Positions 3,552 to 60,742 of a stretch of DNA of 64,000 nucleotides are shown here, piece by piece. The translations under genes and the position numbers were made by a program. Origin of the DNA: an uncultured archaeon (GTDB lineage Archaea; Aenigmatarchaeota; Aenigmatarchaeia; QMZP01; QMZT01). Below the pieces are notes generated by a model that saw nothing but the letters and a program-made list of their open reading frames with translations, made no database searches and had not been told where the DNA came from. The DNA lies in NCBI GenBank assembly GCA_964441265.1, contig CAYYKJ010000003.1:23428-87427 (forward strand). Direction: 5' to 3'. The number at the start of each line of letters is the position of its first letter. Position 1 is the first letter of the stretch.

Positions 3552-4952
3552 CTAAAGCTTATCCATAGCTATTATTTCTACCCCGAACTTCTCTCCGGCT
3601 TTCCCGGGCCCATCAAAACCAGAGCACACTATTATGAATTTCTCCGAGAAGTTTAAGCTGGCATTTATTTTTGATGATTTCTCCTTAAGGGATTTGGATA
3701 TCCTTTCAATGTCCCTGTCTTTGAGGCGACCAAGTTTGGCTTCGCCAATCAGAAGCTTCCTGCCTATCCTGTCTATGCCCAGTATGTCCACCTCAGACTT
3801 CCTGTCCCACCAGCGGCCGAATATGTAGTCCTTATATTTGTCCATATGAACAAGTTCAGATATTGCTACTTCTTCAAACGCATGCCCTGCGAATGAACCG
3901 AGTTCCATTAATATCTTATTATCCACAAGGTTTTCCTGCCGGCCCTGTTCGACATATTCCAGATTTTCAAAAACAAACCTGAACCAGAATCTGAAGAAGT
4001 TGTCCTTTATGACATATATGCCATTCCTCGAGCGGGAAGCGTTTTTTTCTGTTACCGGAACCCTTCTTTCAATAATGTGTAGGTTTGACAGCGTATCCAA
4101 ATATTTGTTGACAAAAGACTTCTCAAAGCCCGTGTCGTTAACTATCTGGCCGGGCCTTGTATTTCCCTTTGATATCGAGTATAATATGGAGAAATAGTTT
4201 TTTGGCTCTTTCAGTTCCTCTCTCAGGGTGAAGAGGACGTCCTGGAAAAGGAACCTGTTTTTCATCAGTACATTCCGAAGGATATTCTCCCTTATGCCTT
4301 TGTCGAAGTTAAACTCAAGCAGGTATGCCGGCATGCCGCCGAGCACGGCGTAATTCATCACCTTTTCCCTGAAGGGCATTCTTTCCGGGAAAAAGCGGCA
4401 CGCGTCCCTGAAATTAAGCGGCTCCAGCAGCATCTGCTCAGTTCTCCTGCCATATATGGGGCTTTTATGTCCGAGGAGCCTCTCCATCATCGACATTGAC
4501 GAGCCGCACAGCACGATAAATGCATTTTTTTCCGAAAGGTTATTATCCCAATGGTCCTGAAGTATGGAAGTCACCTTCTTCGAGGACTGTACCATGTAGG
4601 GAAATTCATCGAAAACAACCGGCATCCTGGGTTTTGACGCAATATAAGCGAAAAGTGCGTCCCAACTGGAGAAGGGGCTCAGCCTGAGCACGTCATCATT
4701 GAAAAACTCCGCCACCGAGCGACTGGCGCTCCTCAGTTGTTCCCTCTCTGATTCCTGCCTGGCAAGTATGTACAGCCCTTTATGTTTTTTGAGGAATTCC
4801 TTCAAGAGTTCTGTCTTCCCGACCCTTCTTCTCCCGTAAAGTATTATGAGCTTTGGGGCACCTTTTTCATAAAGTCCGTTCAAAAGCTTCAGTTCAGATA
4901 CCCTGTTTTTGAAATTTGCGCCCTTTGCTCTGTTGGATTTAGTATACTTCAT
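3552..4952 (-). CDS. AAA+ ATPase of the archaeal-ATPase type with a C-terminal DUF234-like PD-(D/E)xK nuclease-fold domain
   Basis: Walker A motif LILYGRRRVGKTELL. The C-terminus ...SEVDILGIDRIGRKLLIGEAKLG... shows a D...EAK nuclease-like motif. It lies 40 bp downstream of cas4 and 20 bp upstream of the cas1 fragment. Confidence 0.7.
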   Translation of the reverse strand: MKYTKSNRAKGANFKNRVSELKLLNGLYEKGAPKLIILYGRRRVGKTELLKEFLKKHKGLYILARQESEREQLRSASRSVAEFFNDDVLRLSPFSSWDALFAYIASKPRMPVVFDEFPYMVQSSKKVTSILQDHWDNNLSEKNAFIVLCGSSMSMMERLLGHKSPIYGRRTEQMLLEPLNFRDACRFFPERMPFREKVMNYAVLGGMPAYLLEFNFDKGIRENILRNVLMKNRFLFQDVLFTLREELKEPKNYFSILYSISKGNTRPGQIVNDTGFEKSFVNKYLDTLSNLHIIERRVPVTEKNASRSRNGIYVIKDNFFRFWFRFVFENLEYVEQGRQENLVDNKILMELGSFAGHAFEEVAISELVHMDKYKDYIFGRWWDRKSEVDILGIDRIGRKLLIGEAKLGRLKDRDIERISKSLKEKSSKINASLNFSEKFIIVCSGFDGPGKAGEKFGVEIIAMDKL

Positions 4953-4991
4953 AGTAGTATAATGTATAATATACTATTTAAAGGTTTTTCC

Positions 4992-5543
4992 TCACTTCAC
5001 CCAGCAAAATTCAAAATAGCTGCATTTTCTACACATTTTCCTCTTTTCTGGTTCCGGTGGCTTCTCCATTGAAACTATATCACTTATATTTCTCAGGATG
5101 TCTTTTATTCTAGTTTCATTGTCCTCGGTAAGAATGATGGATTTTGTCTTCCTTAATTTGGGGTAATCTATCACCCCCTCAGCATCTACGCCTTTCTGTT
5201 TGAGATAATAAAGGTAATACAGGAGCTGGCAGACGTGGGCGTCTTCCATCTTGTTTGACTTCTTGATGTCGTGGAGCAACAGCTTGCCGCCTCTTTTCAT
5301 GAAATCTATGGATATCCTGGAATCTATCATTATTTCTTTCTTGGCGCCGGCATAGCTTGCTTCATGAATCACCCTGCCCATGGCCACGGCATCGGATTCG
5401 CGCTCCTGCCTTATGAAATGCGAGAAATACCAGAGTTTGGTGGGGCATATCACGTAATAGTTTACCTGCGTCCCTGTGAAGACACATTGCTTCGAAATCA
5501 TACGAATGGCCTCAGAACTCAAGAATCTCATCAACAAATGCAC
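4992..5543 (-). CDS. cas4: Cas4 RecB-like nuclease, apparently intact
   Basis: N-terminal FTGTQVNYYVICPTKLW, a QLLYYLYYLKQKG (QxxxY) motif, an IDF...LLHDIKK (D...DxK) motif, and a C-terminal CRKCSYFEFC cysteine cluster. All four Fe-S cluster cysteines are present. Confidence 0.8.
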   Translation of the reverse strand: MHLLMRFLSSEAIRMISKQCVFTGTQVNYYVICPTKLWYFSHFIRQERESDAVAMGRVIHEASYAGAKKEIMIDSRISIDFMKRGGKLLLHDIKKSNKMEDAHVCQLLYYLYYLKQKGVDAEGVIDYPKLRKTKSIILTEDNETRIKDILRNISDIVSMEKPPEPEKRKMCRKCSYFEFCWVK

Positions 5544-6882
5544 AGAAGACCAATGCAGGAATCAGCATTATATTGATGTTCTTGTCTTTAACTATCCTGA
5601 AATCGCTCTTTGTTATTATGAATCCACTGCTGCATCCGATCTTCCTCATCTCTTCTTTTACTTTCTTGATGTCCTTTTTTGTTACCCTTTCCCTGTATTT
5701 GACCTCGATTAACGTCGTCTTTTCGCCTTTGACCACAAAATCTATCTCACCGTTGCTTCTGAGATACGTCATCCTCTTTCCATGCTTCGAACAACTGATG
5801 AAACAGTGAACTCCCACTATGTTTTCAATGACAAACCCTTCGTTGTCTTCCTTTATCTCATAGTCCCTGAGCAATGAGTTCCTTATGCCCTGGTCCACGC
5901 ACAGGAATTTCTTTTTGGATTTCAGCTGCTCCTTAACCGTTTTGGCAAGCTTCAGTATTTCGATTATGAGATAGGATGATTTCAAATACTCTATATAATT
6001 TGTGAGTATCTCATGCTTCAGCCTTGCCGCCTCGTTTATTTTTTCATAGCTTAATATCCTTGACTGGTTTGCAATGATGAAAACGAAAATCTGCTCCAGA
6101 ATCTTTGCATTCCTTATTCTGAAAGTAGTCGTTATGTCCTCGTATATCGCCTTGTTTGAAATTGAGTTTTTCAGTATTCTGAACCAGTCCCTGAAGTCTT
6201 TCACCTCAAAGAATTCGGGAAATCCTCCTGCAAGCATGTACTGCCTGAAATCCTTTTTGTACGCATCAAGGATTTTATCAACCGAAACGGCATCTGTTTT
6301 AAAATGAGTGACCTCCGTCCCCTTAAGCTCCATGAACTGCCTGAAGGACAAGGGCCATACCTCATGCAGAATGTATCTGCCCCTCAGGTACCTGTTGGCT
6401 TCTTTTTGCAGGGTCAGGCTTGACGAACCCGAAATGAATATCTTTATGTCTTTGTGTCTGTCGTATGCAACCTTAAGCCATTTGTACCACTCACTAACAA
6501 AATGTACCTCATCGAAAAACACGTATTTTTTACCTTCTTCCGCTATATTTTCCAGCCAGTAATCAAAAATGTCCTTGATAAGGTTATCAGAATATATCTT
6601 AAGATATGGATCCTCAAGAGAATAGTACAGAATGTTCCTGGGCTTTGCTCCCTGCTTGATGAGCCTCGCCATGATGTGCTTCATCAGGACGCTCTTGCCA
6701 ACCCTCCTCGGCCCGGTAATTATGGATATCTTTTTCAGCCGGGCGTCGCTGTGAATCTCCTCGACCTCGTCCCTCTCCAGGGGGTAATCCTCCTTCTCCT
6801 CAACCTTCCCGGTAAGCCAGAACCTGTTCGCCTTCTCAAGCTCCTGCCTGAAGACCCCCCTGTCCTTTATCATATTAACCAT
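5512..6882 (-). CDS. AAA ATPase of the AAA_14/DUF4143 type with a C-terminal PD-(D/E)xK-like domain
   Basis: Walker A motif ISIITGPRRVGKSVLMKHI, Walker B motif VFFDEVH, and a C-terminal GEIDFVVKGEKTTLIEVKYRE nuclease-like motif. Its 3' end overlaps the cas4 start, which suggests an operon. Confidence 0.7.
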   Translation of the reverse strand: MVNMIKDRGVFRQELEKANRFWLTGKVEEKEDYPLERDEVEEIHSDARLKKISIITGPRRVGKSVLMKHIMARLIKQGAKPRNILYYSLEDPYLKIYSDNLIKDIFDYWLENIAEEGKKYVFFDEVHFVSEWYKWLKVAYDRHKDIKIFISGSSSLTLQKEANRYLRGRYILHEVWPLSFRQFMELKGTEVTHFKTDAVSVDKILDAYKKDFRQYMLAGGFPEFFEVKDFRDWFRILKNSISNKAIYEDITTTFRIRNAKILEQIFVFIIANQSRILSYEKINEAARLKHEILTNYIEYLKSSYLIIEILKLAKTVKEQLKSKKKFLCVDQGIRNSLLRDYEIKEDNEGFVIENIVGVHCFISCSKHGKRMTYLRSNGEIDFVVKGEKTTLIEVKYRERVTKKDIKKVKEEMRKIGCSSGFIITKSDFRIVKDKNINIMLIPALVFCAFVDEILEF

Positions 6883-6984
6883 TATAGTGGAACATATTTA
6901 TATATTTTTATGCCAGTATAGTGGGAGAAAAGAAAAAGCAACGTCGAGCTCAAGACTTATAACTTTTGGTGATTTTTTAAGAAA

Positions 6985-7066
6985 GCCTGACCGGGCATAC
7001 AATGTAATGATTTACATGGGTTCCTGTGAAGAGATATTCCTTCGCCAGTAGGTCTTGCATAATACC
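6985..7066 (-). pseudogene. cas4: Remnant of a second cas4 gene (N-terminal 27 codons, then a stop)
   Basis: The minus strand translates to MQDLLAKEYLFTGTHVNHYIVCPVRLS*. Compare the intact Cas4 KQCVFTGTQVNYYVICPTKLW. DNA identity with the 5457..5489 region is about 75%. Confidence 0.5.
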
Positions 7067-7288
7067 TCACACAAGCAATAAAAATAACCAGGCAGGAACA
7101 AACATAATCCTTTTTTGTTTAACTCTTTTTTCTTCCAACCTTTCCCGCGTTCATAACGTATTTTATTTGTATTATGGCACAAGTAACCTTTAAGTCTACT
7201 TGTAGAATCATATAAGTAAATTTTGGCGAGTTTTTGGCACGGCTGTTAGGAAAGCGGGTTTAAGACGGGATCTGATTCGGGTTTTGGG

Positions 7289-8506
7289 TTAGATGATGTT
7301 ATTTCCAAATTGATTTATTTCCTCTTTGTCTATATCTTTTATAACATCGATTCCCTTTTCTCTTATACTGTCCATGGTTTCTTTTTTCTGCTTTTTCATG
7401 ACAAAAAATCCTTTGAATTCATGGGAGACTAATCCCCACTTAAGCCAGGGCTTTGCCAGATAAAATTCTGGCAAATTCACTGAATATTCATACAGTATTT
7501 TCTTTAATTTCCATCTTAGGTTTTTTCTTTCTTGATTATTCTCACTTATTTCGATTCCATCTTTTTGTAACTTGTCTAGTATCTCATTCCAAGAAATATT
7601 ATTATTTTCTCTATCATTAATTATTTTAGCAAATGTTTTTCTCAATTTCACATCATCCTCCTCTTTTTCATTTTCTTCTTGCTCTTCAATCTCCATCAAT
7701 TGAGGAATAACCATTTGCATTCCACCAAGTCTTCTGAAAATTCTTTGGGCGTCACTTCTTTTTTCAGCTGTAAGGTACTTTAAATAATCTAGATTTTTCT
7801 TTATCTCTAGTATGTATTTTGAAGTTAGCGAATTTCCATCCTCCTCCTTTCCAAAAACATCATCGATCAGCTCTCTTTCTTTTTCATAATTGAGCGGTTG
7901 ATTCTCAAATTTCTTTAGAATTTTCACAGTGGATTCCATTACTTCTTCATCATAAATTGCCTTGCTTCCCCTGTCTTTACTGAAATTTGAAAAGACAATT
8001 ATGTTTGGTTCAACGACTTTATTTTCCTTATTCCTATTTATTCTCCCCCATCTCTGAATTTGGCTATCAATAGGGGAAACCTCCGTGATCATAAAATCGA
8101 AGTCTACATCTACAGATGCCTCAACCATCTGAGTAGATACCAAGATTACTTTTTTGCCTTCATCCAACCTCTCTTTAATTTTCTCTATTCTTTTACCTTT
8201 TACTTTCTCTGTTAGCCGTGAATTTAGCAAGAAAAAGCCGTCTTCTTCATTTTTTCCAAATTTTTCATAAAGTTCTATTGATTTTTTTACATTGTTTACT
8301 ATTATCATGGTACTGACTTCGTTTTCTTTAAAATCCTTCACCGGGAATATATTGGAAAAGCAGAAGTATTTGTATGTCCTTTTGTCGTGAAGCTCATCAT
8401 AGGCACTGCCCTTCAATAATTTATAGAAAAAACCCTGCAATTTTTTATAATACAACATATCATAAACACAATCCTTCTCAACATTGAAATTCAGGAGAAT
8501 TCTCAT
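7289..8506 (-). pseudogene. cas3: In-frame fusion of a Cas6 N-terminus (about 58 aa) to the Cas3 helicase C-terminal half. This is a remnant of a type I-B-like cas operon.
   Basis: The N-terminus MRILLNFNVEKDCVYDMLYYKKLQGFFYKLLKGSAYDELHDKRTYKYFCFSNIFP looks like a Cas6 N-terminus with the F-x-F-S motif. It is followed by MIIVNNVKKSIELYEKFG...FFLLNSRLTEKVKGKRIEKIKERLDEGKKVILVSTQMVEASVDVDFDFMITEVSPIDSQIQRWGRINR, which matches Cas3 helicase motifs IV to VI plus the Cas3 C-terminal domain. The HD domain, Walker A and DEAH motifs are absent. Confidence 0.65.
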
Positions 8507-47758: not shown

Positions 47759-50590
47759 TTACTTCTTTCCTCTCTTTTTCTTTCCCGATTTTTTCCCGGA
47801 TTTCTTCTTCTTTGTGGTACCTTTCTTGCCAGCGGATTTTGTTTTCCCGGTCTTCTCCCCGGTTTTACTGCCGGCCTTCTTTCCGGAAGACTTCTTTTTC
47901 TCGGATTTTGTCCTGGCTGATTTCTCTCTCTTGGACTTCTTTGTTTTCTTCCTGCCGGAGGACTTGGGTTCCCCGGCCTTCTTTTTCGTTTTCTTTTCAG
48001 TTTTTTTCTTCTTGCTTCTCTTTCCGGAGCCCGGCCCCTTCATACCCTTCATTCCGCTTATCTTCCCGCTTTCCTCCGGTTTCTCCCTTTCTTCTCTGGG
48101 AATCTGCTCCCCGGGGAACCTTCCGATCAGCCTGAAAGCCCCTGTCCCCAGGGGTATGACCTGATTCATTATTATGTTCTCCACCTGCCCTCGAAGGGAA
48201 TCCCTTTCACCGTTTATTGAGGCGTTGATTATGTGCTTTTTTGTCTCCTCAAAAGACATCCTGGCGATCACAGAGGGCTTGCTCCCTGCGATTCCGTACC
48301 TCCCAATCCCCATTATATTACCCGAATACGTCATCAGGTCGGCCAGAAGGGAGACGTATCTCGGGTCGACCCCCAGCCCCTGCTCCTCTATGGTGTGGAC
48401 GGCCTCCTGTATTATCGCATTCCTGGCCGCCTCTATGCCGAGAACACTACATATCTCAAATATGTTGTTGCAGGTGGTCTTTGTCGGATCCACCCCTTCC
48501 ACAGCCAGTATCTTCTTGAGGTTGGAACCGAGGGTGCTTATTATCCATCCCTCATCCTCTTTGCTCACAATAACGTGGGAAATGCCCTTTACTCCCTCTA
48601 TATGGGACTCCATGACCTTGTATTTCAGCTTGTGGAGGTTGATGTTCTCGGTCTTCTTGGAGGTCACGGATATCTCGGAACCCTGGACATCGACATCCAC
48701 GTTCTTTATCTTTATGTGCTTCTTCAGGTCTTCCACGTCCAGATTGAAATCCCTGAGCTTTTTCTTGTTGAGCTTGAGCCTTATGACCAGGTTTATGAGA
48801 TCTATAACGTCACCCACCACGAAGTCCCTGAGCTTGACCTCCTTTATTTTCTTTGCTACCTTGAGCGCCTTTTCCTCGCTCTGGTAGTCCTTCATAAGGT
48901 GTATGGTCATGCTGGGCGTTTCCGGCTTTTTCTTCGCGTCGTATATCTCGATTAGACGTGGCAGACCCAGGGTTACCTGTATGCCTGCGACCCCTGCGAA
49001 ATGGTAAGTCCGCATCGTATTGTGGGTTACGATCCCGTCGAAAGTAGTGAACGTTTCCGTCCCCTCCACGGTGAAATCATATACATAATCATTGGACGGC
49101 CTTACGCGGGAAATCTCGGTTATCTTATCCCAGACCACGTCCGAATTGAGCATTGTCTTCATGACCTTCAGTTCATTTTCTATGTCGATGCCCTTTGATT
49201 CGGAGAGTCTTTCAAAAATACCCACGTATTTGGCAAGGGTCGATCTTCCTATTCTCTGTCTCCCGGTGAAATTGTTGACATATCTCGTGGGGTAGCCCAG
49301 CTTTTTCGCCGTCCTTAGGAACAAATCCCCGAATCCTCCCACCATGTCGGTGAAGTCCTGGAATTTACCATTCTTCCCAAAAAACCCGCATAGCCTCTCG
49401 AGTCTCTCCTTCTTTTCGTCAACGGAAAATCCTATATTCTCCCTGAACAGACCGGCATATTTATAGGGTATCGCCAAATTGAACTGTTTGTCAATGCTCT
49501 TGTTTGCAAATATCCCGAACCTTGTCAGCAAGAGCTTGATACCGTCAATGAGCTCCTCCGAATTGGACGATGCCCTTATCATCCCCCTGTCCACTGAGAC
49601 ATTGCCGTCCCCGTCGAAATACCCCTTCAGCAGCCCGGACACGAACTCCTTCTTTGCGCCATATGAGAAATATGGAACCCTTTTCGAGCCCGAGCCGGTA
49701 CCGCAAACCGCCTTCATCAGTCTGCTCAGGATAATGGAGTTTATCCTTATGTCATGTCCCTTTGAGAAACCGCGGAAATTGTCATATTCATTGAAGGTGA
49801 ATCCGTGCGATCTGGCGAACTTCCTGATTTTTGAAAGGAATTCACTGTCTACGTTGGAGAAGGAAACGTAATATTTCGTGGATTGACCTTCGGAAAGGTA
49901 TGCCCCGAAAATCCATCCCAGGGACTTGTCAAGGTCGATTTTTTCGGGGAGGGGCTTCCTAATGAAAGAATCGGTTTCCCCTATGGCATCCTTCAAATCA
50001 AGGGACTGGAGACAATTTTCAGACAGAAATTTCATAGAGGGAATCCTGCTACCGATTTTCAGTTGTTTTCCAGATATCGGGACTATTTTGTTGTTTTCCC
50101 TGACAACGAAAGAATGGGAATCGGTGGCCGTTATTTCTCTTCCTGAAAGGGTTCTGATTTTTATCAGTTCTTCGGGTGCCTTGTGCCTGCTGCATGAAGA
50201 AACCCTTTTCCACTCAATCTTCTCCTTGCCAGTTATGCTGGGGACAAAAACTTCCCCATCAGAAAAATCGAATATCTCCCAGCCGTTCTCTTCTTTCTTC
50301 CCGAAGACATCCATAACACTGTCCACGAATTCCCCGATTTTAGGTGTTATTATGCATCCATTATTCTTCAGTATTACCCTTTCGTTGTGATCTAGGGACA
50401 TCTGGGTGGCCGGCTCGGATAGCGACTGGGCCGCAACGACGCCCATGGCCTCCTCCGGATAATAGAGCGCCTTGTTGTAAAGCACCCTGACCCTTCCGAT
50501 CAGTTCTGCGGAGTCCATGCCATTCTCTTTGGCGTATTCCTCCACTTCCTTCCTTATCTTCAAAGGCAGTTCTCTCATTTTATCATCCAT
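47759..50590 (-). CDS. rpoA2: DNA-directed RNA polymerase subunit A'' carrying an intein and a C-terminal Lys-rich tail
   Basis: Exteins ...VVAAQSLSEPATQM | TMRTYHFAGVAGIQVTLGLPRLIEI... match conserved A'' blocks. The 943 aa total breaks down to a normal A'' of about 360 aa, a 460-aa intein, and a tail of about 120 aa. Confidence 0.9.
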   Translation of the reverse strand: MDDKMRELPLKIRKEVEEYAKENGMDSAELIGRVRVLYNKALYYPEEAMGVVAAQSLSEPATQMSLDHNERVILKNNGCIITPKIGEFVDSVMDVFGKKEENGWEIFDFSDGEVFVPSITGKEKIEWKRVSSCSRHKAPEELIKIRTLSGREITATDSHSFVVRENNKIVPISGKQLKIGSRIPSMKFLSENCLQSLDLKDAIGETDSFIRKPLPEKIDLDKSLGWIFGAYLSEGQSTKYYVSFSNVDSEFLSKIRKFARSHGFTFNEYDNFRGFSKGHDIRINSIILSRLMKAVCGTGSGSKRVPYFSYGAKKEFVSGLLKGYFDGDGNVSVDRGMIRASSNSEELIDGIKLLLTRFGIFANKSIDKQFNLAIPYKYAGLFRENIGFSVDEKKERLERLCGFFGKNGKFQDFTDMVGGFGDLFLRTAKKLGYPTRYVNNFTGRQRIGRSTLAKYVGIFERLSESKGIDIENELKVMKTMLNSDVVWDKITEISRVRPSNDYVYDFTVEGTETFTTFDGIVTHNTMRTYHFAGVAGIQVTLGLPRLIEIYDAKKKPETPSMTIHLMKDYQSEEKALKVAKKIKEVKLRDFVVGDVIDLINLVIRLKLNKKKLRDFNLDVEDLKKHIKIKNVDVDVQGSEISVTSKKTENINLHKLKYKVMESHIEGVKGISHVIVSKEDEGWIISTLGSNLKKILAVEGVDPTKTTCNNIFEICSVLGIEAARNAIIQEAVHTIEEQGLGVDPRYVSLLADLMTYSGNIMGIGRYGIAGSKPSVIARMSFEETKKHIINASINGERDSLRGQVENIIMNQVIPLGTGAFRLIGRFPGEQIPREEREKPEESGKISGMKGMKGPGSGKRSKKKKTEKKTKKKAGEPKSSGRKKTKKSKREKSARTKSEKKKSSGKKAGSKTGEKTGKTKSAGKKGTTKKKKSGKKSGKKKRGKK
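49019..50398 (-). mobile_element. Intein with a LAGLIDADG homing-endonuclease domain inserted in rpoA''
   Basis: Begins SLDHNERVIL right after TQM and ends ...FDGIVTHN followed by the extein T. Two LAGLIDADG motifs (LGWIFGAYLSEGQS and LLKGYFDGDGNVS). Confidence 0.8.
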
Positions 50591-56828: not shown

Positions 56829-56940
56829 TCCCTTTTGGTCCCACGCTTTTGTCGGGAAAAGGAAAAGCGTGGAGTGGAAGCGGTCAGCTCCCTTTTGGTC
56901 CCACGCTTTTGTCGGGAAAAGGAAAAGCGTGGAGTGGAAG
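56829..56940. repeat. Two identical tandem copies of a 52-bp unit (period 60 bp, 8-bp spacer). Each unit contains a 10-bp-stem hairpin.
   Basis: tcccttttggtcccacgcttttgtcgggaaaaggaaaagcgtggagtggaag occurs twice. The internal palindrome is CCACGCTTTT/AAAAGCGTGG. Confidence 0.6.
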
Positions 56941-56946
56941 AATGAA

Positions 56947-57181
56947 TGGGCCCGACGGGAATTCCGAACAGCGGATCCCTTCTTTTGGGATCTCCTTCCT
57001 TTCGGAAGGGCTGATTCGAACCCGCGACTCCCGGATGTCTTTCTGTCATCCGCCCGTGAGGGCGTCAGCATACTTTTATGCCCAGATAAAAGTTTCACAC
57101 GTCCAGGAAAAACCCGAGTTTCCTTGGAAACCGGTGCTCTAATCCCCATCCTCGGGGGATTCCAGGCTGAGCTACGAGCCC
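56947..57181 (-). tRNA. tRNA-Trp(CCA)-like gene, 235 nt, with predicted introns in the D-loop (20 nt), the anticodon loop (about 90 nt) and the T-loop (about 53 nt)
   Basis: GGGCTCG-TA-GCTC-AGCCTGG[AATCCCCCGAGGATGGGGAT]TA-GAGC-A-CCGGT-TTCCAA|...|TCCGG-GAGTC-GCGGG-TTCGAAT|...|CCCGT-CGGGCCC-A. Removing the 20 nt restores a canonical D-arm. The T-stem pairs GCGGG/CCCGU. The acceptor pairs GGGCTCG/CGGGCCC. The 31:39 pair is U-U, so the anticodon-stem junction is uncertain. Confidence 0.4.
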
Positions 57182-57183
57182 AA

Positions 57184-57255
57184 CGCCTCGGCCGGGATTT
57201 GAACCCGGGTCCTGGGAGTGACAGTCCCAGATGATAACCACTACACTACCGAAGC
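57184..57255 (-). tRNA. tRNA-Asp(GUC), 72 nt, no encoded CCA
   Basis: GCTTCGG-TA-GTGT-AGTGGTTA-TCAT-C-TGGGA-CTGTCAC-TCCCA-GGAC-CCGGG-TTCAAAT-CCCGG-CCGAGGC-G. Only 2 nt separate it from the downstream Trp-like gene. The D-stem has one mismatch. Confidence 0.75.
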
Positions 57256-57712: not shown

Positions 57713-59434
57713 TTATCCGTGTTTTTCGTGCTTTGGGTGCTCATGTTTCATTTTGGTTCTCGTTTTCAAATGATTGATGTGATTCGTTTTCTCTTTAAGA
57801 AATCCATTTAAATTCATACCGTACTTGGATATAAGCGTTGAAGCATGCTGACCTCCTAAAAAATACGGCATTAAAACGTACGTTGCCCCGTTTTCGTACA
57901 ATTTAAGTGCCTCGTCAATTTGATGGCACACGATTATTACTATTGAGTCTTTGTTGGATTCTCTCACCTTTTTTATCAGCAGCAAACTGGTTTCAACGTC
58001 GGGGATTGTTGAAATTATCATTTTTGTTCTTGAGAAATCCAGTTTATTCAACAAATCTATGTCATTAGCATCGCCATATCTGCATTCATAACCCTCACTC
58101 GCAAGCTTGGTGATCACTTCGGGATCATAATCGACAATGAGAAACTTCTTCTTGAGATTCTTGATGGAACCCAGCAGGCTGAAACCTATCCTGTCATATC
58201 CGAACAAAATGATGTTATATTTTTTGCCCTCGTGGTGAATATGTTCATCGATTTTTCTTCCTCTTCTTTCAAAAATACCAAGATATTTGGAAATATGAGA
58301 ATATAATTTGTTTGAGTGCATTATCATATATGTGGAGCCAAGGATTGTCATCAGTCCTATCGCAGTCACCATCGACAGTATTTCATTTGAAACATGGCCC
58401 ATTTTCACTCCCAGGGCCACCACTATGAGGGAAAACTCGCTTATTTGGGCCACGGTCAATCCGGCCATAAACCCGTTCCGTTTCGTGTATTTGAGCAGGC
58501 CCATCAGAATCATCACTATGAGCGGGTTTCCCACCAGAACGAATGCTGAAAAAACCGCAACAGGGAGCAGAAACTCTGAAATGTTCACGAAAATCATCTG
58601 GGACCCGAGCAAAACAAAAAAGAAAAGGATGAAGAAGTCCCTGAGCACGTTCATTTTTAATTTAATTTCATAGTGGTAGGGAGATATGGACAGTGATATT
58701 CCCGCAAGCAACGCCCCGATTTCTATTGACAGGTTCAAATAATCGAAAGCAACAGCCAGCAATAACAGCCATCCTATAGAAAAGAGTAATAAAAATTCCT
58801 GATATCTGCTGATTGCTTCAGTAATTCTGGGCAAGACAAAAATGCTGAACACTGAAATGAATGCCAATATCCCTGCTCCGATGAAAATATTCTCTACGGT
58901 AAGCGTTAGAATATCAAATCCGCTTGTGAAAGAGGATATCATCATTAAAATTATTATTGCGGTCACATCCTGCACAATGAGAAAACCCACTGATATCCTG
59001 CCGTAAAGGGTCTGCAGATCGCCTTTGTCCGAAAGGAGTTTCACGATAATTATAGTGCTGCTGAAGGTCAGAGCTATAGCAACATAGAGGGCAGTGATAT
59101 CAGAAAAACCAAAGAATTTTGAAATAAAAAAACCTATAATGGTGGTGAATAATATTTGACCTACTCCCGTTATGAGAGAAACCTTTCCAACGTTCTTCAT
59201 CACCTTCGGGTTCAGGCTGAGCCCTGCAATAAACAAAAGGAAAACCACCCCGAACTGGGAAAGAGTCGCTACTATGTCAGCGGACTTGACAATATTCAGA
59301 AACAGGGGCCCCGCAACAATACCTGTGATTATGTAACCTACTATGAGGGGTTGTCTAAGCAGTTTCATAAGTCCGGAGACAAAAACAGCAAGAATGATAA
59401 TTAAGCTTATCTCGATAAACATGCTTTCAATCAT
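57713..59434 (-). CDS. CPA2-family K+/H+ antiporter (Kef-type) with a C-terminal RCK/KTN domain
   Basis: About 12 TM helices and a TrkA-N-like domain (ILFGYDRIGFSL...DANDIDLLNKL). Confidence 0.75.
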   Translation of the reverse strand: MIESMFIEISLIIILAVFVSGLMKLLRQPLIVGYIITGIVAGPLFLNIVKSADIVATLSQFGVVFLLFIAGLSLNPKVMKNVGKVSLITGVGQILFTTIIGFFISKFFGFSDITALYVAIALTFSSTIIIVKLLSDKGDLQTLYGRISVGFLIVQDVTAIIILMMISSFTSGFDILTLTVENIFIGAGILAFISVFSIFVLPRITEAISRYQEFLLLFSIGWLLLLAVAFDYLNLSIEIGALLAGISLSISPYHYEIKLKMNVLRDFFILFFFVLLGSQMIFVNISEFLLPVAVFSAFVLVGNPLIVMILMGLLKYTKRNGFMAGLTVAQISEFSLIVVALGVKMGHVSNEILSMVTAIGLMTILGSTYMIMHSNKLYSHISKYLGIFERRGRKIDEHIHHEGKKYNIILFGYDRIGFSLLGSIKNLKKKFLIVDYDPEVITKLASEGYECRYGDANDIDLLNKLDFSRTKMIISTIPDVETSLLLIKKVRESNKDSIVIIVCHQIDEALKLYENGATYVLMPYFLGGQHASTLISKYGMNLNGFLKEKTNHINHLKTRTKMKHEHPKHEKHG

Positions 59435-59448
59435 TCACAAACCTCAAA

Positions 59449-59868
59449 TTACTTTTTTGCTTTAACCAGTCCGTACACCAATTCGAATGCATCAAGCTCA
59501 CCGACAAGTTTCCCCTTTTCGCACACAGGTATGTCCTGAATCTTGAAAACCTTGGCTACCCTCAGAGCGTCCTCCAGATCATCATCCAGCGTTACAGTTT
59601 CAGGCTCAATCATCACATCTTTTGCCGTTTTTATGGCCTTCTTTCCGAGAAAAAAAATAATCTTATTCGGACCTATGTCAGGTCTTACGCATTTAAATAT
59701 TTCATTGGTCGTTATTACGCCGATTAGTTTATTGGAATTGCCCACTACGTATACGTTTCTCCTTCCTCTGTCTTTAATGAAAATATCTATAACTTTGTCT
59801 ATTGGTTTGTCCGGATTTACTGTTTTTACTTTATCTGAAAACGCCCTATAAACATCCCCCACTTTCAT
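59449..59868 (-). CDS. CBS-pair domain protein
   Basis: Two CBS motifs (VYVVGNSNKLIGVIT...; VCEKGKLVGELD). 139 aa. Confidence 0.7.
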   Translation of the reverse strand: MKVGDVYRAFSDKVKTVNPDKPIDKVIDIFIKDRGRRNVYVVGNSNKLIGVITTNEIFKCVRPDIGPNKIIFFLGKKAIKTAKDVMIEPETVTLDDDLEDALRVAKVFKIQDIPVCEKGKLVGELDAFELVYGLVKAKK

Positions 59869-60504: not shown

Positions 60505-60534
60505 TGAAAACTAAAATGAAGCGGGTAACCCCGC
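60505..60534 (-). terminator. Hairpin (GCGGG-GUUA-CCCGC) plus U-tract downstream of the 5S rRNA
   Basis: The minus strand reads ...CAGGCGGGGUUACCCGCUUCAUUUUAGUUUUC immediately after the 5S 3' end. Confidence 0.45.
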
Positions 60535-60544
60535 CTGAAAATTA

Positions 60545-60712
60545 GGGAGCAGCGTTCTGGATTTCCCACCTATCACCGCCGAAAGAAACAGGCACGCCTG
60601 TTTCCTGCGAAACCCGAAACCTCCGGTTTCGGCAGTAATTCCCAGACCGCGGGGAGTCTTAACTTCTGTGTTCGAAATGGGAACAGGTGATCCCTCCCGC
60701 TTTGGCCGCTCG
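60545..60712 (-). rRNA. rrf: 5S rRNA, orphan gene, with an extended helix IV region (about 165-170 nt)
   Basis: Minus strand GAGCGGCCAAAGCGGGAGGGAUCACCUGUUCCCAUUUCGAACACAGAAGUUAAGACUCCCCGCGGUCUGGGAAUUACUGCC... aligns to archaeal 5S helices I-III, loop C and loop E (compare GCGGCCAUAGCGG...CCCAUCCCGAACACGGAAGAUAAGCC...AGUACUG). Helix V closes as GCGGUCUGG/CCAGAACGC and helix I as GAGCGGC/GCUGCUC. About 45 extra nt lie between the loop E strands. Confidence 0.6.
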
Positions 60713-60734
60713 ATATTCTAATTGCCGGGCAAGG

Positions 60735-60742
60735 TTTATAAA
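60735..60742 (-). promoter_or_regulatory. TATA box (TTTATAAA) about 25 bp upstream of the 5S rRNA 5' end
   Basis: Seen in the sequence and correctly spaced for an archaeal promoter. Confidence 0.45.

Follow-up and report, generated by a model that had tools for sequence, protein, structure and literature searches.

A candidate bulge-helix-bulge intron in the 5S rRNA gene of a Candidatus Aenigmatarchaeota archaeon

This study concerns a 64,000-nucleotide (nt) stretch of DNA from an uncultured archaeon (contig CAYYKJ010000003.1, positions 23,428 to 87,427 of the forward strand; assembly GCA_964441265.1), referred to here as the window, and in particular its 5S ribosomal RNA (rRNA) gene, which is interrupted by an insert of 55 nt. 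The original prediction for this DNA had placed a minus-strand 5S gene, ending at 60545, between its own TATA box and a hairpin terminator, and had described an expansion of about 45 nt in helix IV. The check that it suggested, an Rfam cmscan search, supports the gene itself: across the window, RF00001 (5S_rRNA) matches the minus strand at 60713..60602 with 46.4 bits (gathering threshold 38; E = 1.8e-6). The alignment is sound as far as the 5′ strand of loop E, a stretch that covers helices I-III and loop C. Its 3′ half is misplaced, and its 3′ end falls at 60602, within the insert, with a mismatched pseudo-helix I; the score is ~10 bits lower than those of intron-free orthologues (58.9 and 55.2 bits). 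Direct reading of the sequence gives the real helix I as GAGCGGC (60711-60705) paired with GCUGCUC (60553-60547), 7 bp in length. Because helix I can be read in this way, and with the support of the orthologue alignment, the end of the gene is set at 60545, and the precursor form of the gene, intron included, spans 60545..60713 on the minus strand, or ~169 nt.

The host had been thought to have a Thermoplasmata-like genome, an assignment that the RpoB'' protein does not support. The rpoB'' gene lies 4.2 kb from the 5S gene, and the homologues of its product are 65-89% identical; those that are named are mostly labelled Candidatus Aenigmatarchaeota or Aenigmarchaeota. Candidatus Aenigmatarchaeota is a phylum within the DPANN kingdom Nanobdellati, and by this comparison the host belongs to it and not to Thermoplasmata. 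The RpoB'' homologues, together with the conserved order of genes at the locus, also led to the orthologous 5S genes. These are normal, at about 115 nt, in L123/L124 (GCA_016932215.1), L125/L126 (GCA_964447525.1) and L130 (ERZ27247977), where helix IV and loop D read CUGCC-GAAUA-GGUGG (loop variant GAACA in L125). The gene of L129 (GCA_964516855.1) carries a 55-nt insert homologous to that of the window, and the gene of L127 (SRR21285597) a 25-nt insert at the same site. In L128 and L131-L134, relatives by RpoB'' whose loci were fetched for synteny, no 5S gene was found near rpoB''. A neighbour-joining tree of RpoB'' groups (window,(L123,L125)) as sister to ((L127,L129),(P0008,L130)), and the RpoB'' proteins of L127 and L129 are 97% identical. 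Because the tree interleaves carriers and non-carriers, the insert is patchily distributed among very close relatives, which requires at least two losses or lateral transfer.

The flanks of the gene agree with the original prediction. The TATA box, TTTATAAA (60742..60735, minus strand), is centred ~25 nt 5′ of the first 5S base and is found at an equal distance in L125, L123, L129 and L130, as TTTATAAACC or TTTTTAAACC. Downstream is a terminator-like element (60507..60536, minus strand) made up of a 7-bp hairpin at 60536..60519, with five of its seven pairs G-C, and the T-tracts that follow it; the L125 gene likewise has an equivalent hairpin directly 3′. The claim that the gene is unlinked to 16S and 23S rRNA genes is borne out within the window, where cmscan found neither of these and no second 5S gene, the sole other match being tRNA-Asp (57184..57255, minus strand). 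In this clade, the 5S gene has a conserved slot that adjoins a gene for an OGG-type glycosylase and lies upstream of dUTPase_2, tRNA-Asp, rpoH and rpoB''. Because the window gene occupies the orthologous slot and has the same promoter as the intron-free genes, it is the organism's regular 5S gene and no stray copy. It is, then, a single-copy-type, unlinked 5S gene of a Candidatus Aenigmatarchaeota archaeon.

In a MAFFT alignment, the intron-free orthologues show one gap, 55 columns wide, between ...CUGCCGAA and UAGGUGG..., and the site of the insert is the terminal loop D of helix IV. The original prediction was thus right about an extra block in helix IV, where both of its hairpin-forming stretches are present; the orthologue alignment revises the size to 55 nt and the site to loop D. 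The insert itself, ACCGGAGGUUUCGGGUUUCGCAGGAAACAGGCGUGCCUGUUUCUUUCGGCGGUGA, occupies 60573..60627 (minus strand). On its 5′ side is exon 1 (86 nt, 60628..60713, ending ...CUGCCGAA), as delimited by the orthologue alignment, the scan described below and the spliced product; it comprises helices I-III, loop C, the 5′ strands of helix V, loop E and helix IV, and the first three bases of loop D. Exon 2 (28 nt, 60545..60572), delimited by the orthologue alignment and the spliced product, supplies the final two loop D bases (UA) and the 3′ strands of helix IV (GGUGG), loop E, helix V and helix I. An assembly artefact, which the original prediction had named as one of the findings that would overturn it, is ruled out because the insert is the same in two independent Logan assemblies (SRR7048220 and SRR7048218), which are identical (100%) to the window over a 601-nt stretch that spans the gene. 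The homologous inserts of L129 and L127 come from two further projects.

The boundaries of the insert coincide with a motif of the bulge-helix-bulge (BHB) type. The scan model consisted of an outer helix, a 4-bp helix, an inner helix and, on each strand, a 3-nt bulge that is cut after its second base. A candidate common to all three insert-bearing genes lies exactly at the insert boundaries. In the window (all positions on the minus strand), the central helix joins the exon strand GCCG (60630..60633) to the intron strand CGGU (60575..60578; CGGC in L129 and L127) through the pairs G60633-U60575, C60632-G60576, C60631-G60577 and G60630-C60578. The 5′ bulge is AAA (60627..60629) in all three genes, with a predicted cut at A60628|A60627, and the 3′ bulge is GAU (60572..60574; UUU in L129, AUU in L127), with a predicted cut at A60573|U60572. 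The exon-side helix h consists of CU (60634..60635) and AG (60570..60571), paired as U60634-A60571 and C60635-G60570, while the intron-side helix h′ has 7 bp between CCGGAGG (60620..60626) and CUUUCGG (60579..60585). The scan and the pair counts support all three helices, and RNAalifold independently supports the central helix and h′. In L129 and L127 the two outer helices have the same lengths (h = 2, h′ = 7), around introns of 55 and 25 nt, respectively. The definition of the hBHBh′ form asks for a 4-bp helix, bulges of 3 nt and, in each outer helix, two or more Watson-Crick pairs (PMC7714728; PMC5829648); the window, L129 and L127 all have the opposite 3-nt bulges, the 4-bp helix and both outer helices. 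Alternative BHB registers at precursor positions 84 and 85 were rejected, because neither L129 nor L127 conserves them and splicing there would fail to give back the orthologous sequence.

Excision at the predicted cuts removes exactly 60627..60573, that is, the alignment gap. Joining of the exons yields CUGCCGAA|UAGGUGG in all three insert-bearing genes, and the window product around the junction, CUGCCGAAUAGGUGG, is identical to the intron-free sequences of L123 and L130. The spliced window 5S is 114 nt long, has no indels relative to its orthologues, and is 94.7% identical to that of L123 and 93.9% to that of L125. In its minimum free energy (MFE) fold, helix I and helix V are present, and helix IV has 5 bp capped by a GAAUA loop. 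When the unspliced RNA is folded to its MFE, the insert pairs with AUUACUGCC, a segment that takes in loop E bases, an arrangement that would displace loop E; the insert pairs with the 5S core (bases GCCG) and does not fold as an independent module. The motif is thus present in exact register, it is conserved in the homologous inserts, and the insert is present in some close relatives and absent from others. We consider it probable that the 55-nt insert is a BHB intron in loop D of 5S helix IV.

The spliced product also bears on the idea that the window gene is a decaying copy, inactivated by the insertion, with a normal 5S elsewhere in the genome supplying the ribosome. There are precedents: Stepanov and Fox describe 5S pseudogenes with inserts and suspect loss of function, by steric clash, for a 69-nt insertion in Desulfitobacterium dichloroeliminans (PMC7812874). 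That insertion is in helix IV, as here, but it is bacterial, so that BHB splicing does not apply, and it coexists with normal 5S copies (PMC7812874). The genome of the present archaeon was inspected for 5S genes over 64 kb, which leaves room for another copy. Against a decaying copy, the gene stands at the orthologous locus behind a conserved promoter, its exons are 94-95% identical to functional-looking orthologues and free of indels, the insert is kept with intact pairing in at least three species, and there is no second 5S in the window. By analogy, 203 of 208 complete genomes of Nanobdellota, another DPANN phylum, have a single 16S-23S-5S operon (preprint 10.64898/2026.05.13.725050). We regard a decaying copy as highly improbable.

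An intron, by comparison, is expected to keep its splicing motif, and the pattern of conservation can be examined pair by pair. Standard pairs occupy 43 of the 43 countable cells of the 13 BHB pairs; when the partners are slid by 1-3 columns, the proportion is 34-68%. There are one-sided changes from G-U to G-C in the central helix and from G-U to A-U in h′. Direct reading of the h′ strands gives CCGAAGG/CUUUCGG for L129 and CCGAAUU/AAUUCGG for L127, so that two pairs are altered on both sides (GG/CU to UU/AA). When given the three local sequences alone, RNAalifold finds, unprompted, both the central helix with its AAA bulge and the 7-bp h′. The inserts of L127 and L129 differ in length (25 versus 55 nt) and in their interiors, with the motif alone kept, a pattern that reads as that of an intron and not of a structural rRNA element. 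Among shuffled inserts, the motif in register with h′ of at least 7 bp arises 93 times per 1e6 for the window, 68 for L129 and 4 for L127. Shuffles thus reproduce the in-register motif in at most 1e-4 of trials, and a chance origin of the in-register BHB is unlikely.

The same observations weigh on the reading of the original prediction, in which the insert is a structural expansion of the mature 5S. In such a scenario, the 55 nt would remain as a branched extension of helix IV, which either juts out of the ribosome or finds room in a remodelled DPANN ribosome. Expanded 5S rRNAs that are retained in the ribosome are known from Halococcus, other Halobacteriales and several bacteria (PMC7812874; PMC7530397), retention of the Halococcus insert having been established by RNA sequencing and cryo-electron microscopy (PMC7530397). 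The insert is also highly structured, RNAalifold depicts a quasi-continuous extension of helix IV, and retention is compatible with the evidence at hand, which is sequence. The inserts of Halococcus, Halalkalicoccus, Halomarina and Halodesulfurarchaeum (108-109 nt), like bacterial 5S expansions, resemble that of the window in being structured, making the 5S oversized and being poorly annotated (PMC7812874). Known archaeal expansions are, however, confined to Halobacteriales and adjoin loop E and the three-way junction (PMC7812874); the halobacterial inserts lie between these two elements or at other exposed sites, fold independently and have no BHB (PMC7812874), whereas the window insert is in loop D, is paired with the core and is bracketed by a BHB. 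Stepanov and Fox (2021) recognize an expansion segment by an independent fold, a lack of complementarity to the core and an outward site, a profile that the insert does not have. Its boundaries instead form a canonical splicing motif whose register is exactly the one needed to recover the intron-free sequence. In its best folds, the register of loop E and helix IV is shifted or displaced (the RNAalifold consensus fold moves helix IV by three bases), and published expansion segments have no such core complementarity (PMC7812874). Its length goes from 55 to 25 nt between genomes whose RpoB'' proteins are 97% identical, where the BHB pairs alone are kept, and it is lacking altogether in the sister species L123, L125 and L130. 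Finally, according to the 5S survey, the helix IV/loop D end docks in a cavity where a large insert would clash (PMC7812874). Retention in the ribosome therefore seems to us unlikely, and an intron remains the preferred reading.

The scanner and cut rule were also applied to tRNA-Asp genes of the lineage, which served as a check on the cut register. T-loop introns were recovered in the tRNA-Asp of L123, L125, L108, L112 and L130, and introns at position 37/38 in that of L130 and L129. Each of these, once excised, restores either the intron-free sequence of the window, GGGUUCAAA|UCCCGG, or the anticodon loop. ARAGORN overlooks most of the interrupted tRNA-Asp genes of the lineage. Because tRNA-Asp introns are recovered in several relatives, the lineage can be described as rich in BHB introns with presence/absence polymorphism; variants of the splicing endonuclease, EndA, in DPANN archaea have been linked to heavy disruption of tRNA genes (PMC5829648). 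The number of tRNA-Asp introns varies from zero to three per genome (L123, L125, L127, L129, L130, L108, L112 and L102), in the T-loop, at anticodon position 37/38 and in the D-loop. The tRNA-Asp of the window is intron-free, and intron gain and loss among these close Aenigmatarchaeota relatives is rapid.

If the insert is a BHB intron, its removal can be envisaged as follows. Transcription from the gene's own TATA promoter would give a precursor of ~169 nt, in which, according to the computed structure, the helix IV exon sequence GCCG would pair with the intron sequence CGGU to form the BHB. The archaeal splicing endonuclease EndA would then cleave each bulge after its second base (A60628|A60627 and A60573|U60572). 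A ligase of the RtcB type would join the exons and the 55-nt intron would be released, probably as a circle, as in the known pathway. The spliced junction would read CUGCCGAA|UAGGUGGGAAAU, and the back-splice junction of a circular 55-mer would read GGCGGUGA|ACCGGAGG. After ligation, helix IV would refold to the native CUGCC-GAAUA-GGUGG within a normal 114-nt 5S. For this scheme we infer the start and end of the transcript, its cleavage, ligation and circularization, and the presence of EndA and RtcB in the genome.

Several points weigh against splicing. Splicing, ligation and the mature ends are all deduced from sequence alone. Neither EndA nor RtcB was found among the 30 window proteins (Pfam) or the Pfam calls for L120 and L122, a search with the scope of the window; to our knowledge, EndA is present in all archaeal genomes. 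BHB-like matches of low stringency are frequent in any sequence, and there were dozens in the scan. Because such matches alone are common, the argument rests on register and conservation. Support from covariation is thin, since there are just three intron-bearing sequences and these are mutually related; moreover, the tool-counted alignment has no both-sided change, as gaps introduced by MAFFT conceal the L127 pairs. Helix h has just two Watson-Crick pairs, the minimum of the definition, in a register that differs from native helix IV. RNAalifold favours a shifted outer register of 4 bp with a 4-nt 3′ bulge, although the shift leaves the cut unmoved because the cut is measured from the central helix. 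Lastly, the BHB conformer lies 3-8 kcal/mol above the MFE fold in the window, L129 and L127 (-30.0 versus -37.7 kcal/mol in the window and -31.0 versus -34.7 kcal/mol in L129); in L127 alone do the two folds come close in energy.

The closest parallels to the 5S insert are the BHB introns of archaeal 16S and 23S rRNA genes, known from Thermoproteales, Desulfurococcales and several DPANN archaea. There too the junction folds as hBHBh′, and excision by EndA and ligation by RtcB are presumed, as for the 5S case. Their distribution is likewise patchy among close relatives, DPANN rRNA genes included (PMC6125680; PMC5829648). The candidate intron differs from them in its 5S host, in its very short length (55 or 25 nt) and in having no open reading frame, and it is therefore without a homing endonuclease. 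A second parallel is provided by the BHB introns at non-canonical positions of tRNA genes in DPANN archaea and Thermoproteales, which share with the candidate 5S intron the motif, the register of the cuts and the polymorphism of gain and loss, and which occur in the same lineage (T-loop and 37/38, tRNA-Asp of L123, L125, L129 and L130). Unlike these, the 5S host is an rRNA, and the exon-side helix is not native to the mature RNA. It is for this reason that helix IV must refold after ligation.

Other types of intronic element were considered and rejected. For a group I or group II self-splicing intron, there is no Rfam match: between 56500 and 60900, with E up to 1, the matches are the 5S, tRNA and a sub-threshold C/D-box RNA. 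A length of 55 nt is also, in our view, too short for a catalytic intron core. A C/D-box guide RNA within the intron was dismissed because, on direct reading, the 55 nt hold neither C nor D boxes.

Our searches turned up no previous report of an intron within a 5S rRNA gene. BHB introns have been described for tRNA, 16S and 23S rRNA, and mRNA only (PMC6125680; PMC5829648). A survey of oversized prokaryotic 5S rRNAs contains no DPANN case and no intron (PMC7812874), and in a survey of the candidate phyla radiation none of 645 5S genes had an insertion of at least 100 bp (PMC11270868). The term "5S rRNA intron" and variants of the phrase are absent from the full-text literature searched, which comprised about 8 million papers.

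Part of the candidate intron has a counterpart outside the 5S coding sequence. A core element of 32 nt (60581..60612, minus strand), which takes in the hairpin GGAAACAGGCGUGCCUGUUUC (60605..60585), shares homology with a hairpin that L123 and L125 have in the 3′ flank of their 5S genes. These are the two closest relatives of the window and are intron-free; in them, the hairpin lies just 3′ of the 5S and is terminator-like. Identity is 27/32 to L123 (546-577) and 23/31 to L125 (4033-4063), and either score was reached in 0 of 2000 shuffles. The intron of L129 also holds the core element; neither the 25-nt intron of L127 nor the 3′ flank of any intron-bearing gene contains it.

That a 32-nt element can occupy more than one place is the point in favour of the view that the insert is a small piece of DNA, mobile or palindromic and similar to a miniature inverted-repeat transposable element, or an assembly chimera, with no meaning for RNA processing. 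Further copies were sought, and the core hairpin was rejected as a dispersed repeat: none was found elsewhere in the window or in the 130 fetched loci. On direct reading, the boundaries of the insert have neither terminal inverted repeats nor a target-site duplication. Two independent assemblies give the same sequence, which other projects also contain, and insertion of an element would leave the exact-register BHB motif unexplained. Such an insertion or chimera has, in our estimate, next to no likelihood. Under the intron reading, the position of the core hairpin may be a trace of the intron's origin or loss. It is conceivable, although we hold the idea only tentatively and think it rather improbable, that a single event moved the element between the 5S trailer and loop D, so that the birth or death of a BHB intron has been captured. 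Such a move could have come about by recombination with an RNA copy that had been aberrantly processed or ligated, or by capture of the trailer hairpin into a proto-BHB. If true, the relocation would be a rare before-and-after record of the gain or loss of a protein-spliced intron, in the one rRNA for which our search turned up no report of an intron.

Further interrupted genes were sought in several collections. A scan of genome contigs with a 24-mer of loop C gave at least 119 loci, mostly bacterial, and included three DPANN 5S genes of normal length followed by tRNA-Asp; the window's own genome was not among the loci listed. In these loci, an nhmmer screen flagged chiefly divergent bacterial 5S genes, and the archaeal ones that it flagged were of normal length on inspection. 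A screen of the same loci for helix I complementarity was too noisy. In metagenomes, a scan for the 5′ half of the clade's 5S with a 40-70-nt gap in helix IV returned no matches, its GTTAAG/TTT requirement being one that would miss genes of the L129 type. A second metagenome scan returned one contig, of the same species as L125, without the intron. Viral contigs with a match to the exon-intron junction (n = 42) were all discounted as chance, as they have no 5S similarity. The scans also brought up a second, divergent 5S-like sequence in a metagenome-assembled genome of Candidatus Methanoperedens (L017:4368-4451, minus strand), ~700 nt from the regular 5S and with an altered loop C, and which could be either a pseudogene or a paralogue.

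If splicing is borne out, the gene would hold the first reported 5S rRNA intron that we could find, and 5S rRNA would join the substrates of the archaeal splicing endonuclease. An implication is that interrupted 5S genes may be mis-annotated or missed in DPANN genomes, where a lack of 5S is sometimes reported, because the standard 5S model scores such a gene ~10 bits lower and gives it a wrong, truncated 3′ end inside the intron. The six species-level relatives, which range from no intron to a minimal one of 25 nt and one of 55 nt, would together with the relocated hairpin provide a compact system for the study of intron turnover.

Other features of the window are noted here for completeness. 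Between the 5S gene and dUTPase_2, the window alone has a CBS-domain gene and a Na+/H+ exchanger/TrkA_N gene (57713-59868, minus strand); in relatives, the 5S gene directly adjoins dUTPase_2 or a UbiA gene intervenes. Within the CBS-domain gene is an sR3-like C/D-box match from Rfam (59560-59620, minus strand), with recognizable UGAUGA and CUGA boxes, which at 22.8 bits (gathering threshold 41; E = 0.008) is probably a chance match.

Directly after tRNA-Asp there is a second tRNA gene (~57181..56937, minus strand) that was overlooked by both ARAGORN and Rfam. Its acceptor strands, GGGCUCG...CGGGCCC, pair, and D-arm and T-arm sequences are present in a total of ~245 nt. Long inserts break it up in the D-loop, by ~21 nt compared with L130, as well as in the anticodon region and the T-loop, and the L130 orthologue is without the D-loop and T-loop inserts. 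The junctions are matched only partly by a strict BHB scan, and some of the motifs may be relaxed. Between this interrupted tRNA gene and rpoH are two perfect 52-nt direct repeats (56829-56880 and 56889-56940, spaced 60 nt), each of which contains the inverted repeat ACGCUUUU...AAAAGCGU; Tandem Repeats Finder gave no report of the pair.

Farther away, the gene for RNA polymerase A'' (~47759-50590, minus strand; gene 6269-9100 of L122) encodes a 943-aa product with an intein that has a LAGLIDADG homing-endonuclease domain. The orthologues in L123, L125, L127 and L128 are 424-440 aa long and lack the intein, and that of L134 has one. A defence-like cluster at 3552-8506 (minus strand) includes an archaeal ATPase_2/DUF234 protein, Cas4, an AAA_14/DUF4143 ATPase and a protein with a Cas3-like C-terminal helicase domain.

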